From: an uncultured bacterium
Lineage (GTDB): Bacteria > Oederibacteriota > Oederibacteriia > Oederibacteriales > Oederibacteriaceae
DNA: 64,000 bases
NCBI GenBank assembly: GCA_965112635.1
Contig: OZ218778.1
Coordinates: 243,666 to 307,665 of the forward strand
Direction of reading: 5' to 3'
Part shown: piece by piece, positions 33,449 to 40,878 of the stretch
How the letters are laid out: the number at the start of each line of letters is the position of its first letter
Numbering within the stretch: position 1 is the stretch's first letter
Made by a program: the position numbers and the translations under genes
Notes under the pieces: model-generated
What the model was told of the DNA's origin: nothing
The model's input: the letters and a program-made list of their open reading frames with translations, nothing else
The model's database searches: none

Positions 33449-34204
33449 ATGACGGAAAAAACCCATGTTTCCTTTGAAATCAAAGGGGTTTATAAAAAAA
33501 TGGGCCTCAACCAGGCCCTGGACGGAATCACCACGCTTTTTGACGCCTCCACCCTGCACGGCCTTATCGGCCCGGATGGGGCCGGTAAAACCACTCTCCT
33601 GCGCTGCCTCATCGGCCTGCTGAAACCCAATAGCGGGGAGATCCTTTACTTCCAGGAGCAAAGCCAGGTCCCCTTTTCTAACGTCAGGGACGGCCTGGCC
33701 TACATGCCCCAGCAGCAAAGCCTGTACCCGGACCTTTCCATTGACGAACATTTGGAATTTTTCCGAGACCTCTACCAGATCCCGCCGGAAATTTACTCAC
33801 AGCGTCGCGATGAACTCCTCCAGTTGGCTCGTTTGGCCCAGTTCAAGGACCGTCCGGCCGGACAGCTCTCCGGCGGCATGTATAAAAAGCTCGGTCTCAT
33901 GTGCGCCCTGCTCCGCTCCCCCTCGGCCGTACTGCTGGACGAGCCCACCAACGGCGTGGACCCCATCAGCCGCCGGGAGTTTTGGGATATGCTCTACCGT
34001 CTGGTGGGACAGGGTGTCCTGGTCCTCATTTCCACGGCCTACATGGACGAGGCCGAACGCTGCGGCAAGGTCCATATCCTGTCACATGGGAAACTTTTGA
34101 CCAGCGGTGAGCCTGAAAATGTCCTTACCGCGGAAAAGGTCCGCAACTTCGAGGAGCTTTTTATGAAATATGACCGGCTTGAGACAGCTTTAAAGGAGAG
34201 ATGA
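33449..34204 (+). CDS. ABC transporter ATP-binding protein
   Basis: Walker A GPDGAGKTT, signature LSGGMYKK, Walker B LLDEPT. Confidence 0.85.
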   Translation: MTEKTHVSFEIKGVYKKMGLNQALDGITTLFDASTLHGLIGPDGAGKTTLLRCLIGLLKPNSGEILYFQEQSQVPFSNVRDGLAYMPQQQSLYPDLSIDEHLEFFRDLYQIPPEIYSQRRDELLQLARLAQFKDRPAGQLSGGMYKKLGLMCALLRSPSAVLLDEPTNGVDPISRREFWDMLYRLVGQGVLVLISTAYMDEAERCGKVHILSHGKLLTSGEPENVLTAEKVRNFEELFMKYDRLETALKER

Positions 34205-35140
34205 ACATGTCTAGCGTCTTGAACACTCCCAGCGTTGAGGTCAACGGCCTTACGGTCAAATTCGGTAAATTCACGGCTGTGGACAACATCTCCTTCAGGG
34301 TCGCCCAGGGAGAGATTTTTGGGTTTTTGGGGGCTAACGGCGCCGGCAAGACCACGACCATCCGTGTCTTGTGCGGACTCCTCATGCCCACCAGCGGTAG
34401 CGTGTCCGTGGCCGGCCTGGAGGTCAAGCAAAGCCTGCAGGCAATCAAACAAAAGGTCGGCTACATGTCCCAAAAATTTACCCTGTACCAGGACATGACC
34501 GTGTGGAGAAAACCTGGCCTTTACCGCGGCCCTGCGCAAAATTCCCCAGGAAGTCTTTCAACAGCGTAAAAAAGAACTGCTGGAGTTCATTGGCTTCCAT
34601 GAGCCGGAAAAAACTTTTGTCAAAGACCTGGCCGGGGGCCTCAAACAGGAAGTGTCCCTGACCGCGGCCATGCTGCACGACCCTGAGATCGTGTTTTTGG
34701 ACGAACCCACAGCCGGGGTGACCCCGGCCAGCCGCCAGCGCTTTTGGGACCTCATCCGCCAACTCTCCGCCAAGGGCAAAACCGTTTTTGTGACCACCCA
34801 TTACATGGATGAAGCTGAAAACTGCGGCCGTATCGCTCTCATGCGGGCCGGCCAGATCATAGCCCTGGATACCCCGGAAAACCTTAAAAACACGCGTTTT
34901 CCTTATCCTCTTTATGAGATCACCCCCAAACCAGGGGCAGCCCCGGACTGGCTTGACCGTCTGCAAAAGGACAAGCGCCTGGATTTGTCACCTTACGGTC
35001 TGCGTTACCATTGCGCAGTCAAAGATAAAGCAGCTTGGCCGGAAATTTCCACATTTTTAAGCGAGCAAGCCGCTTCCCATCCTATCAAACCGTCCCTGGA
35101 GGATGTTTTTATCCAGCTTGTGGAAGGAGTGGACCGATGA
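34201..35140 (+). pseudogene. second ABC transporter ATP-binding protein, frame broken near 34507-34513
   Basis: Walker A GANGAGKTT in first ORF; Walker B VFLDEPT in ORF 34652-35140; removing one base at tgg-a-gaaaac restores TVWENLAFTAAL. Confidence 0.7.
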
Positions 35141-37370: not shown

Positions 37371-38393
37371 TCAGCGTGGGGGGCGCGCTTCCAGTTTTTT
37401 TTCCAGCCGCGTTTGCAGGATCACCCGCCGGCCTCCGCTAATCTTGAGGATCCGCTCCACCGTCATAGAGCGCGTTAGCGCAACATAGATCATCTGGTCG
37501 TCACGCAATCCCCGAAAGTAATGCTCAAAGTCGTCCGCCGCAGCGTCGTTGAGCTGCACACCCCGGAGGTTCTCCATTTTTCGCCAGCAGGGAATGTGCT
37601 GCGTGTGATAGCCGCAGAGGTGGATCGTACCGCCCTCGGGATAAACCCTTAGCACCTGCGCGTCCAAAGGCGCGACATGCTCCGCGTAGGCCTGGGGCCC
37701 TACCAGCTGGGTCGAGCAGCCGCAGATATGGCCGAACCCGTCCGGTGCGTAACGGTGCGAAGAGGCATAAAATCGGACTCGTTTTTGAGGAAAACGCTTA
37801 CGGATCAGCCGGTGCAGGGCCTCTATGGTGTCCGCGATCACGGCCAGGCCGGCCATATCCGCGGTTTCTACCAGGGAAAGCGCCATAAGCGCACGCTCGC
37901 CAAAGAGGTTTAGGGCAATATTGAGCGGTGAGGCAAATACAGGGGTCGTAAGAGAGATTCCCTTTGGCAGGCTGGACAGAGCCCGGCTCATAGCCTCCAG
38001 CGACCAGAGCACGAGTTCCGCGTGCTCTACGTCAACAGGTTTCAAACTCCCCAGTTCAGTTGGAAGCTGGTCAGCCCAAAAGTTCCCGTCCCGCTCGCTG
38101 ACATGGGCTCCAAAAAGCGCGTCCACAAAATGCACTCCCAATGGCCAGAACTCGGCTACCAGCGGACTGAACGTGATTGTGTCAGCTCCCAGGCTGGCGT
38201 TTTCCTCAAAGGAACGAATCATCGCCTTGAGCCACTCTGCAAAGGACTCCTCATCCGGCCGCAAATATTCCCTTTGAGGTATGTTGGCGATTGAAAGCAC
38301 TGACTCGCCCGGATGCCCGATATACAAATCCCTAAACGCCTTCACATGGGCTTCCTGGGCAATCTTAATCGCAGGATCACTAAGTTTCACCAT
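37371..38393 (-). CDS. hypothetical enzyme, possibly a third URO-D/MtaA-family paralog
   Basis: 340-aa ORF with Cys/His-containing C-terminal half (GHICGCSTQL, HLCGYHTQHIPC); family call is tentative. Confidence 0.45.
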   Translation of the reverse strand: MVKLSDPAIKIAQEAHVKAFRDLYIGHPGESVLSIANIPQREYLRPDEESFAEWLKAMIRSFEENASLGADTITFSPLVAEFWPLGVHFVDALFGAHVSERDGNFWADQLPTELGSLKPVDVEHAELVLWSLEAMSRALSSLPKGISLTTPVFASPLNIALNLFGERALMALSLVETADMAGLAVIADTIEALHRLIRKRFPQKRVRFYASSHRYAPDGFGHICGCSTQLVGPQAYAEHVAPLDAQVLRVYPEGGTIHLCGYHTQHIPCWRKMENLRGVQLNDAAADDFEHYFRGLRDDQMIYVALTRSMTVERILKISGGRRVILQTRLEKKLEARPPR

Positions 38394-38438: not shown

Positions 38439-38978
38439 TTAATCAAAGACGACATCCTCATTTTGCACATACCCGCGGTTCTGGACTTTAGCTTTGGTCC
38501 TGTTTCTTTTGACTTTTACTTTTTCCGTCACAGGCCCTGTCCCCTCAGGAACAGCCTGCTTTTCCCTGACCGTATTGGCCTTGAGGAATTTTTTGACGGC
38601 TCCGATGACCTCATCCTCATAACGCGGATGGCTCTCCAGGACCCACTCCGTGAACTGCCCCAGCTCTTCTGGGGACACTTTGAGCCACAGGCTGTTCTTG
38701 TCCAGCCAGGCCAGGAGCACGGCCAGGCTGACCTGCTTCTGGGCCTGTTTGCCGAACGGCGGCTCTTTGAGGAATCGGTAGAACAGGACCGCGCCTTTGT
38801 CCAAAGTGCCGGGATAGGGATTTTGGTCAATGAAATTCTCGAACGGCGCAGCCAGGTCTTTTTCCAGGATATTGGCTGGCCTGGGATCAGCTACCTCTGC
38901 CAGTCCCTTTTTGACCATCTCGCTGACCAGGTACTCCACTTCTGCCAGACCAAGCCGGGTCATCAGCGTCCGCTCCAT
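38439..38978 (-). CDS. hypothetical protein with basic C-terminal tail
   Basis: 179-aa ORF overlapping the upstream HTH gene by 16 nt; no recognised motifs. Confidence 0.4.
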   Translation of the reverse strand: MERTLMTRLGLAEVEYLVSEMVKKGLAEVADPRPANILEKDLAAPFENFIDQNPYPGTLDKGAVLFYRFLKEPPFGKQAQKQVSLAVLLAWLDKNSLWLKVSPEELGQFTEWVLESHPRYEDEVIGAVKKFLKANTVREKQAVPEGTGPVTEKVKVKRNRTKAKVQNRGYVQNEDVVFD

Positions 38979-39232
38979 TTCGACAATATGCCGCCAAAAT
39001 CACTGGATATCCGCTCCAGACAAGTATTGAGGCGCTGAATATCCTTTTCGCCCAATGTTTTGCCCAAAATACCGTCTATATGGTCGCTGGGAATCACATA
39101 ATTCCGGCCGATTTTCTCGCCTGTTATCAGGCCTTTTTTGACCTTTTGGAATACCGCTATCCTGCTGACTCCCAATAAATCAGCAACTTGTTTAATCGTT
39201 AAATATCGTTGTTTTTCAATCACTTTAACCAA
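38963..39232 (-). CDS. small helix-turn-helix DNA-binding protein (excisionase/MerR-like HTH)
   Basis: 89-aa ORF with HTH LTIKQVADLLGVSRIAVFQKVKKG. Confidence 0.6.
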   Translation of the reverse strand: MVKVIEKQRYLTIKQVADLLGVSRIAVFQKVKKGLITGEKIGRNYVIPSDHIDGILGKTLGEKDIQRLNTCLERISSDFGGILSKWSGR

Positions 39233-39456
39233 CCTATGTTAATAATATCTATCTAACTTAACAACAGTTAACTTACATAATATCTTAACATATCCATCAA
39301 AAAATGCAATATCGACAGGCTTATTTGATTTTACTCAGGAGTTGCATATCACAGGATTTCTTATAGCAATGGTTTTAGGTGAATTATCAAGTTTGGAAAG
39401 GAGTAATAGGGAATCCCTTTGGACATTTGTGCCGCAAACCTTGCAGTTTCTCTTCC

Positions 39457-40878
39457 CTATTTCCCCTGGTTTTTGGGGCCTCGGTGCTGGCTGTGGCTGA
39501 AACTATGACCTTGCCCCTGACCGTAGTGGCTCTGGGGCCTGTGGCTATCTCCGTGGTGGCCCTGGGGCCTGGAGTGGTGCGGATGGTGGGGATGGCCTCC
39601 TCCTAGATAGCCGGTAGGCGGTTTTTCATTATAGTCAAAGTCGGGCAGGAGCACGGCCGGCAGTTTTTTGTTCACCAGTTTCTCGATATCCCGAAGCATC
39701 AGGTTGTCCTGGGGTGTGACAAATATAAAAGCGTCGCCTTCGGTATCTTTGCGGGCGGTCCGGCCGATACGATGGATATAATCCTCGGCGGCCTGCGGCA
39801 CATCGTAGTTGATGACATGAGTGATGTCCGTGAAATCAATACCCCGGGCCGCAATATCGGTCGCGACCAGGACCCTGATATCGCCCTTTTTGAAACGATG
39901 GAGCACTTCCCGGCGGTGGGTCTGGCTCTTGTCGCCGTGGATGACCTCGGAATCCACCCCGTGCCGCCTGAGCTTTTGCACCAGGGAGTCCGCCGAATGC
40001 TTGCTCCGGACAAAGACCAGGACCGAGTAGAGCGCCTGCTGTTCCAGCAGTTTGATCAGGAGCTTGGTCTTGAGATGCCGCTCCACCGGGAACATGGCCT
40101 GGCGGATGCCGCTGGGCGGGGCCTCCCGGCCCACCCGCACGGTCACCGGGTCTTTGAGGACCACATGGGTCAGTTCTATGATCTCCTGCGGCATGGTGGC
40201 TGAGTAGAGCAGGGTCTGCCTTTTGGCCGGGACATAGCTCAGGATGCGCTTGATATCCGGCATGAATCCCATGTCCAGCATCCGGTCCGCCTCGTCCAGC
40301 ACCAAAACCTCCAGATTGTTGAACTTCGCGTACCCCCGGCGCAGGTGGTCCATAAGCCGGCCCGGTGTGGCCGCGATGATGTCAAAACCGGTGCGCAAGG
40401 CGTTCTCCTGGGCATCAAAACCCACCCCGCCGTAGACCGCCGCGCACCGAATCTTGGTGTGGTAACCTAAGGCCGTAGCCTGCTCATCTATCTGGGCAGC
40501 CAGCTCCCGGGTGGGCGTCAGGATGAGGACCCGGATGCCTGTCCCGCGGTTGTGCAGGATGCGGTGCATCAGGGGGATGAGGAACGCCGCGGTCTTGCCT
40601 GTGCCGGTCTGGGCCGTGGCGATGAGGTCATGGCCTTTTAAAACCTCAGGGATGGCCTGTTCCTGGACAGGCGTTGGTCGGGTATATCCCATATCTTTGA
40701 TGCCGCGGAGCAGGTCTGGATGCAGGTTAAATTTAGCGAAAATGGGCGTTTCCCCCTTTTCATAGATTAAATATCTCTCCAAGTATAGCCTTTTAATCTG
40801 CCTATAACTATCAAATATTGCGGAAGCGGCTGTCTTCTTTATTTGGTGCCGGATTGTTATAATTACTCCGCTGGTCAT
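39457..40878 (-). CDS. DEAD-box ATP-dependent RNA helicase with His/Gly/Gln-rich C-terminal tail
   Basis: Q-motif PTPVQ, Walker A AQTGTGKT, DEAD, SAT, HRIGRTAR; true start probably downstream of 40878. Confidence 0.85.
   Translation of the reverse strand: MTSGVIITIRHQIKKTAASAIFDSYRQIKRLYLERYLIYEKGETPIFAKFNLHPDLLRGIKDMGYTRPTPVQEQAIPEVLKGHDLIATAQTGTGKTAAFLIPLMHRILHNRGTGIRVLILTPTRELAAQIDEQATALGYHTKIRCAAVYGGVGFDAQENALRTGFDIIAATPGRLMDHLRRGYAKFNNLEVLVLDEADRMLDMGFMPDIKRILSYVPAKRQTLLYSATMPQEIIELTHVVLKDPVTVRVGREAPPSGIRQAMFPVERHLKTKLLIKLLEQQALYSVLVFVRSKHSADSLVQKLRRHGVDSEVIHGDKSQTHRREVLHRFKKGDIRVLVATDIAARGIDFTDITHVINYDVPQAAEDYIHRIGRTARKDTEGDAFIFVTPQDNLMLRDIEKLVNKKLPAVLLPDFDYNEKPPTGYLGGGHPHHPHHSRPQGHHGDSHRPQSHYGQGQGHSFSHSQHRGPKNQGK

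Follow-up and report, generated by a model that had tools for sequence, protein, structure and literature searches.

A pair of small overlapping genes in a 64,000-nucleotide stretch of DNA from an uncultured bacterium of the Oederibacteriaceae (phylum Oederibacteriota; assembly GCA_965112635.1, contig OZ218778.1, positions 243,666 to 307,665; hereafter the window) is probably a diverged and disarmed descendant of a type II toxin-antitoxin (TA) module, in which a helix-turn-helix (HTH) antitoxin of the HTH_17 family is paired with a Doc (death-on-curing) toxin that is no longer a kinase and has most likely been kept as a non-catalytic partner. The window retains the gene order, a one-base overlap between the two genes, all of the invariant residues of the HTH protein and a layout of four repeated boxes upstream. 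The initial annotation of this locus, made from the sequence alone, described an excisionase- or MerR-like HTH protein overlapping a 179-amino acid (aa) protein of no recognisable family, and compared the pair both to regulator-effector systems and to remnants of mobile elements; the former comparison is borne out, in the form of a TA-type module rather than an excisionase cassette.

Both open reading frames (ORFs) are located on the minus strand, at 38963..39232 (89 aa, TTG start) and 38439..38978 (179 aa), and overlap by 16 nt in their longest forms, which agrees with the overlap first noted. Relatives and public gene calls favour shorter products, an 86-aa HTH protein starting at GTG 39223 and a 174-aa second protein starting at ATG 38963. 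The stop codon of the first gene and the start codon of the second then share one base (TGATG), the geometry seen most often in the family described below, in which most members are at −1 or −4. The locus therefore has the organization of a TA module, with two small, co-oriented and translationally coupled genes of which the antitoxin gene comes first. Over the module, neither an independent short-read assembly (L002) nor a further public contig (L001) differs from the window by a single base, indicating that the unusual motif is not an assembly error.

The HTH protein scores narrowly above the Pfam threshold for HTH_17 (PF12728; 27.7 bits, cut-off 27) and above that of the NCBIfam 'excisionase family' (TIGR01764; 32.9 vs 28.8), and also matches several PHROG excisionase families. 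The excisionase half of the original assignment therefore stands as a statement about domain type, but the MerR half does not, the protein reaching only 13.9 bits against a cut-off of 28.2 for PF00376 and being only 86-89 aa in length. It comprises an N-terminal winged HTH (approximately residues 10-53) and a helical tail conserved in the family (approximately residue 55 to the end). All of the family-invariant residues are retained (Y10, A17, G21, S23, R24, A26, G34, G42, R43 and N44), and divergence is greater in the conserved C-terminal tail, where F replaces Y79 and W replaces L86. Its nearest solved structure is the mycobacteriophage excisionase Gp37 (4j2n, E 0.006), and 16 homologues of approximately 85 aa with 38-51% identity were found in a protein database. 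MamR (a magnetosome protein; NF040990, 24.8 bits vs a cut-off of 100) and MAD1 (the HTH protein of the MADS defence system; PADLOC mad1, E 2.6e-8) are also matched weakly, which appears to reflect the common HTH_17 domain rather than membership of these families. Neither protein of the module has a paralogue in the window.

The identity of the second protein is decided by the genes that follow its partner's homologues. At least 341 relatives of the HTH protein are present in one-genome-per-species contigs of the Omnitrophota, Planctomycetota, Elusimicrobiota, Nitrospirota, Desulfobacterota, Patescibacteria and other phyla, and in 72 of 80 genome loci a Doc-like ORF of approximately 139 aa lies directly after the HTH gene, with gaps of −4 to +10 nt. 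In four such loci (L003-L006) each HTH homologue is followed by an approximately 140-aa Fic/Doc protein of PF02661, and a tblastn search of the window with the canonical Doc of L003 gives an alignment of 138 aa at 35% identity (E 1.6e-22); over the whole core, the window protein is 34-38% identical to HTH-linked Docs. The earlier statement that it belongs to no recognisable family is correct for routine annotation, as the 179-aa protein has no Pfam match at E≤1 and hence none to PF02661, but does not survive remote-homology searches. A phmmer search of 1.84 billion representative proteins returned 85 matches, all of them Doc-like, with a best non-self E-value of 1.8e-12 and none above 41% identity, and weak profile matches were obtained to phrog_18015 (E 9.5e-6) and to the 'Doc-like toxin' phrog_577 (E 1.4e-3). 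A profile that includes the window protein (A1) matches the Enterococcus faecalis Doc structure 9vzc at 4e-10.

Structure prediction points the same way. A profile search with the Doc-like protein gave only 8 proteins, and the AlphaFold2 (AF2) model, built on an alignment of 8 sequences, has six helices and a predicted local distance difference test score (pLDDT) of 75 overall, mostly above 90 over residues 61-140. The top five Protein Data Bank (PDB) matches of this model in Foldseek are all chains of P1 Doc (3k33, 3dd7 and 3kh2), with target-normalised template modelling (TM) scores of 0.72-0.76, probabilities of 0.99-1.00 and E-values of 0.03-0.4. The remote-homology and structural checks proposed in the initial annotation thus both lead to Doc (9vzc, and P1 Doc at TM 0.75), and not to a common housekeeping family with conserved synteny. 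We conclude that the second protein is a homologue of Doc with the Doc (Fic) fold. It should nevertheless not be filed as a Doc toxin because it fails the curated threshold of TIGR01550 (15.4 bits vs a cut-off of 38.65), where a canonical HTH-linked Doc exceeds those of both TIGR01550 and PF02661 (48.9 and 46 bits), and because it fails the defining motif. The 174-aa protein should be annotated as 'Doc-like, catalytic motif absent', and neither as 'hypothetical' nor as 'toxin'.

The AT-rich region upstream of the HTH gene, first put at approximately 220 bp, spans 224 bp (39233-39456) with a GC content of 33.5% compared to 53.7% for the whole window, and contains the predicted promoter and operator within 39238-39309. 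The palindrome to which attention had been drawn, TTAACAACAGTTAA at 39258-39271, is the window's only TTAAC-N4-GTTAA site (0.03 expected by chance), yet it is the middle of a four-box operator and not a single site: its halves are boxes 2 and 3, and an outer inverted repeat, TATGTTAA/TTAACATA, supplies boxes 1 and 4. The family makes this layout apparent. In the 120 nt preceding the start codons of the HTH genes of 84 loci there are 243 copies of GTTAAC, a density of 24 per kb compared to 0.14 per kb in the remainder of these loci (approximately 170-fold; 2.9 expected from composition). Between two and four boxes are found in a fixed layout over the gene's own promoter, with start-to-start spacings that are almost exclusively 19, 10 and 19 nt (GTTAAC-N13-GTTAAC-N4-GTTAAC-N13-GTTAAC), and in 51 loci the promoter reads TTGACA-N14-TGT-TAACCT with box 1 embedded in the extended −10. 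'TAT' almost always stands directly before box 1 (L011-L090 and L003-L008). The corresponding sequence in the window is GTTAAG-N11-GTTAAC-N4-GTTAAG-N13-ATTAAC at 39289-39238, with spacings of 17, 10 and 19 nt. A generic promoter scan proposed a different predicted site (39271 to 39242), but we prefer the predicted promoter at 39309-39282 because it is in register with the family consensus. Based on these sequence patterns the palindrome appears to be part of the operator used by this antitoxin family, and the window protein combines, as expected of a TA antitoxin, a DNA-binding domain with putative operator sites on its own promoter, to which we infer that it binds. In a search for other repressor targets the paired-box pattern was found nowhere else in the window, and a search of the AT-rich region against Rfam revealed no RNA element, the only hit being a chance-level miRNA match inside a coding region.

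Doc toxins act as kinases on EF-Tu, and their signature is the motif HxFx(D/N)(A/G)NKR (PMC13034048). The window protein fails this motif, reading PPFGKQAQKQ in place of HPFQNGNKR, with His replaced by Pro, Asn by Gln, Gly by Ala, the second Asn by Gln and Arg by Gln, and with one residue inserted. Near its N-terminus it has, in addition, a deletion of six residues. The His is retained in 75 of 75 canonical HTH-linked partners, nearly all of which read HPFQNGNKRIA, and the sole His of the window protein sits in a distant loop. We considered whether a frameshift might hide the motif, but the other frames over 38727-38762 contain no NGNKR-like sequence and the region is the same in the independent short-read assembly. 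Phosphorylation of EF-Tu is not expected because the catalytic His and most of the motif are gone, and the Doc-like protein would accordingly not be a toxin. The H66Y substitution alone renders P1 Doc non-toxic, and 3dd7, one of the structures matched by Foldseek, is that of DocH66Y.

It is conceivable, if improbable, that the Doc-fold protein still poisons the cell by other means, such as stoichiometric binding to EF-Tu or the ribosome or a different chemistry performed by other residues or by its basic tail, in which case the pair would be a functional TA or defence module. The maintenance of an antitoxin gene, operator and translational coupling is what would be expected beside a partner that is still dangerous, a weak match (E 6.7e-6) links the protein to PDC-S23, a candidate defence family of PADLOC, through the C-terminal domain of that family, and Fic-fold proteins with non-canonical motifs can make other modifications (PMC8401265). 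Against this, the N, G, N and R of the motif have been replaced together with the catalytic His, the only remaining His is in a distant loop, and the Doc-like protein has diverged faster than its partner, a sign that constraint has changed or been relaxed. Of the two proteins of canonical pairs Doc is the more conserved (65% vs 58% identity), but the Doc-like protein of the window is 19 identity points below the value predicted from its HTH partner, equivalent to 3.6 residual standard deviations. The same excess divergence is seen in two other pairs in which the Doc-like protein lacks the His (L007 and L008). This excess shows that constraint has changed or been relaxed on the Doc-like protein alone.

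Under our preferred reading of the pair as a disarmed TA descendant, the HTH protein would bind the boxes and repress its own operon, with box 1 lying over the extended −10 and boxes 2-4 in the leader, and its conserved C-terminal helical tail would hold the Doc-like partner, as in Phd and PanA. The Doc-like protein, unable to phosphorylate EF-Tu, would persist as a folded, non-catalytic repressor partner and possibly as a co-repressor. The module would then be a self-regulating circuit without a poison, and may also drive the orphan gene downstream.

The less likely alternative is that the locus is a neutral relic, a dead TA cassette headed for deletion in which the Doc-like and perhaps also the HTH protein are useless and the intact frames merely a matter of time. 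Several observations weigh against the preferred reading, some of them on the side of decay. No orthologue of the Doc-like protein was found in the databases searched (5.8 billion proteins and the 1.84 billion representatives), leaving it an orphan. Of the columns conserved in at least 90% of canonical members (n=54), the window protein keeps 27, for the most part aromatic and aliphatic residues of the core. Losses extend beyond the motif and are not statistically concentrated in it: by our own count, 4 of 13 motif-region columns are kept compared to 23 of 41 other conserved columns. We therefore dropped motif-specific loss as a sign of targeted inactivation, and divergence across the whole protein fits plain decay as well as it does retention. 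Three of the four operator boxes have one mismatch and the first spacing is 17 instead of 19 nt, so the operator may itself be eroding, and this erosion, the orphan status and the 19-point excess divergence all favour decay. The C-terminal tail has a higher AT content than the core and is probably disordered, with a pLDDT of 55 falling to 41 over residues 141-179, and may represent read-through into former intergenic DNA. The G+C content at third codon positions (GC3) changes abruptly within the module, from 0.47 in the HTH gene to 0.74 in the Doc-like core and 0.475 in its tail, and the gap between the HTH gene and the core would not be predicted by a simple shared history; possibilities are that the antitoxin/operator end was swapped by recombination or that the tail was recruited from former intergenic DNA. 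The E-value of the Foldseek match is modest (0.03) with few sequences behind the model, and for every member of the HTH_17-Doc family we infer DNA binding, toxin neutralisation and toxicity alike.

Other observations favour retention of the Doc-like protein as a partner of the HTH protein. Its ORF is intact, with only two indels, both in-frame, across the 140-aa core, and the fold of this core is predicted with confidence. In substitution-only simulations of neutral drift, only 0.5-1.2% of genes reached 35% identity without acquiring a stop codon. The GC3 of the core matches that of neighbouring host genes (0.65-0.73), suggesting long residence without breakage, and every invariant residue of the HTH protein is still present. 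Moreover, the window is not alone in having such a protein. Other Doc-like proteins lacking the His are also kept behind an HTH gene, among them P0019, P0023, P0031, P0037, P0060, P0062, P0085, P0087 and P0097, and members lacking it besides the window include L007, L008 and L010; in L007 and L008 the gene follows the HTH gene, and L008 also has the box layout.

The remaining explanation makes the HTH protein a MerR-type regulator or excisionase (recombination directionality factor) left by an integrative element, and the second gene unrelated cargo; we found it to be highly improbable. It would account for the matches to TIGR01764 and the PHROG excisionase families and for the phage Xis 4j2n as nearest solved structure, and one canonical HTH_17-Doc pair, that of L004 (2715-4727), does lie directly after genes for tRNA-Arg, tRNA-His and a tyrosine integrase, a typical island insertion site. 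An excisionase would however be associated with an integrase and attachment site, which is not the case at the window locus. No integrase or transposase gene is present within approximately 10 kb on either side of the module, there are no tRNA genes in the 64-kb window, and the HTH protein had no tblastn match in plasmids or phages and no relative in IMG/VR. Att-like direct repeats and an integrase that co-vary with the HTH family are absent from the 80 loci. The conserved neighbour of the HTH gene is Doc rather than an integrase, the GTTAAC boxes are situated on its own promoter and not at attachment sites, and the score against MerR (PF00376) is less than half of the cut-off. The suggestion of a mobile-element remnant is therefore abandoned; the neighbourhood comparison that had been proposed for phage or integrative hallmarks instead revealed ordinary chromosomal genes over that distance, encoding a DEAD-box helicase, an FGGY sugar kinase, sensor kinases, an ABC-2 exporter with RND-type adaptor and outer-membrane factor, TetR and URO-D. 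Elsewhere in the family, L005 (2103-3666) and L006 (1-1567) are contigs of one metagenome in which the module and its near flanks are 94.9% identical and diverge approximately 240 nt past the Doc gene, consistent with the module being present in two contexts, and one metagenome-assembled genome (MHFL01; L042 and L064) has two copies of the module.

The window pair resembles Phd-Doc (of P1, and of E. faecalis, 9VZC) in being a two-gene operon with the antitoxin first and a second protein of the Doc fold, and in an antitoxin predicted to repress its own promoter via repeated or palindromic operator sites. It differs in that the antitoxin is an excisionase-type winged helix of HTH_17 rather than a Phd/YefM or beta-dome DNA binder, the operator consists of four GTTAAC boxes, the Doc motif is destroyed with no EF-Tu kinase activity expected, the Doc-like protein has a 40-aa basic tail, and neither a phage nor a plasmid carries the module. 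With the canonical HTH_17-Doc pairs it shares the gene order, stop/start overlap, operator and promoter layout and homology of both proteins (38-51% identity for the HTH protein and 35% for the second), but the canonical Docs are approximately 139 aa in length with an intact HPFQNGNKR and score above TIGR01550 and PF02661, whereas the window protein is 174 aa, has lost the motif and is below both, and three of the four window boxes are imperfect. To our knowledge, the canonical pairs (L003-L090) are uncharacterised, and we found no open-access paper on either the HTH_17-Doc pairing or the GTTAAC operator, which is not proof that none exists. In a 2009 survey, the antitoxin partners of Doc were AbrB, Xre, YhfG and Phd, and truncated MerR-like HTH antitoxins occurred only with PIN toxins (Makarova et al., 2009; PMC2701414). 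PanA carries a Phd-C element, and neutralisation is usually via C-terminal helices of the antitoxin (PMC10440598). The HTH_17-Doc pair is comparable to these systems (AbrB, Xre, YhfG, Phd and PanA) in that Doc is combined in a modular fashion with an unrelated DNA-binding antitoxin. Retention of a Fic/Doc fold with a degenerate signature motif has a parallel in Bartonella BepC and Bep8, which have FIC domains with a degenerate motif and act by binding (PMC8401265). These are, however, secreted multi-domain effectors that target the host and derive from FicT AMPylases, unlike the small, cytoplasmic, Doc-type protein of the window with its antitoxin-type partner. The features of the module and of its surroundings are listed in Table 1.

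Table 1. Position of the HTH_17-Doc-like module, its predicted regulatory sites and the adjacent orphan gene in the window
Feature	Position	Strand	Basis
HTH_17/excisionase-family DNA-binding protein, predicted antitoxin and autorepressor, 86 aa	38963..39223	−	Pfam, NCBIfam, homologues
Doc-like (Fic-fold) protein, catalytic motif absent, 174 aa	38439..38963	−	tblastn, phmmer, AF2 and Foldseek
Degenerate active-site loop, PPFGKQAQKQVS vs HPF-QNGNKRIA in relatives	38727..38762	−	translation, alignments A1 and A2
C-terminal extension of approximately 40 aa, Lys/Arg-rich, predicted disordered, absent from relatives of approximately 139 aa	38442..38558	−	alignment A1, pLDDT, composition
AT-rich intergenic region, 224 bp, from DEAD-box helicase gene to HTH gene	39233..39456	.	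composition
Predicted promoter: −35 TTGCAT (39309-39304), 16-nt spacer including TG, extended −10 TGT-TAAGAT = TGTTAAGAT (39290-39282)	39282..39309	−	family register
Predicted operator box 1, GTTAAG (consensus GTTAAC), overlaps predicted extended −10	39284..39289	−	family layout
Predicted operator box 2, GTTAAC, perfect, one palindrome half	39267..39272	−	family layout
Predicted operator box 3, GTTAAG, other palindrome half, 10 bp start-to-start from box 2	39257..39262	−	family layout
Predicted operator box 4, ATTAAC, 19 bp start-to-start from box 3	39238..39243	−	family layout
Orphan 340-aa gene, 45 bp downstream of the Doc-like gene	37371..38393	−	no terminator-like site between

The orphan gene downstream may be co-transcribed with the module, but is not part of the conserved module because the downstream genes differ among relatives. 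Its 340-aa product matches no family in Pfam, NCBIfam, PHROGs, PADLOC or PDB sequences and is the only member of its protein cluster, and a single-sequence AlphaFold model (pLDDT 37) was unusable. We considered a URO-D-like enzyme and rejected this possibility, as the protein has no family match, is not similar to the URO-D gene present in the window and matches no PDB sequence. Upstream of the module, the DEAD-box helicase (39457..40878, minus strand) ends in a His/Gly/Gln/Ser-rich low-complexity tail (39457-39600; ...GGGHPHHPHHSRPQGHHGDSHRPQSHYGQGQGHSFSHSQHRGPKNQGK). In the exporter operon the second ABC ATPase gene is split at approximately 34504 in the window and L001 (ORFs 34201..34569 and 34652..35140, plus strand) but is a single 310-aa gene in L002. 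Over 11,856 aligned bases exactly one extra base distinguishes the two sequences, reflecting either an assembly indel or a real frameshift.

A broader proposal, which we put forward only tentatively, is that HTH_17-Doc represents a large undescribed type II TA family of uncultured phyla, with a fixed four-box GTTAAC operator around an extended −10, in which toxins lacking the His have repeatedly been kept as non-enzymatic repressor partners. The window pair would in that case be a plain transcription circuit, with the dead Doc and its basic tail serving as co-repressor or sensor, and may control the 340-aa gene. The window pair itself is a modest finding, one more chromosomal descendant of a TA module, but the operator shared throughout the HTH_17-Doc family and the recurrence of disarmed toxins merit follow-up. 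The design of its operator and promoter is strikingly conserved from one phylum to another. The family provides a ready-made, testable model for an excisionase-type HTH protein acting as both antitoxin and repressor, and its members without the His (the window, L007, L008 and L010) are a natural test of the fate of TA modules once the toxin has been disarmed. If the dead toxin does still tune repression, the module would be a simple case of an enzyme turned regulatory subunit.

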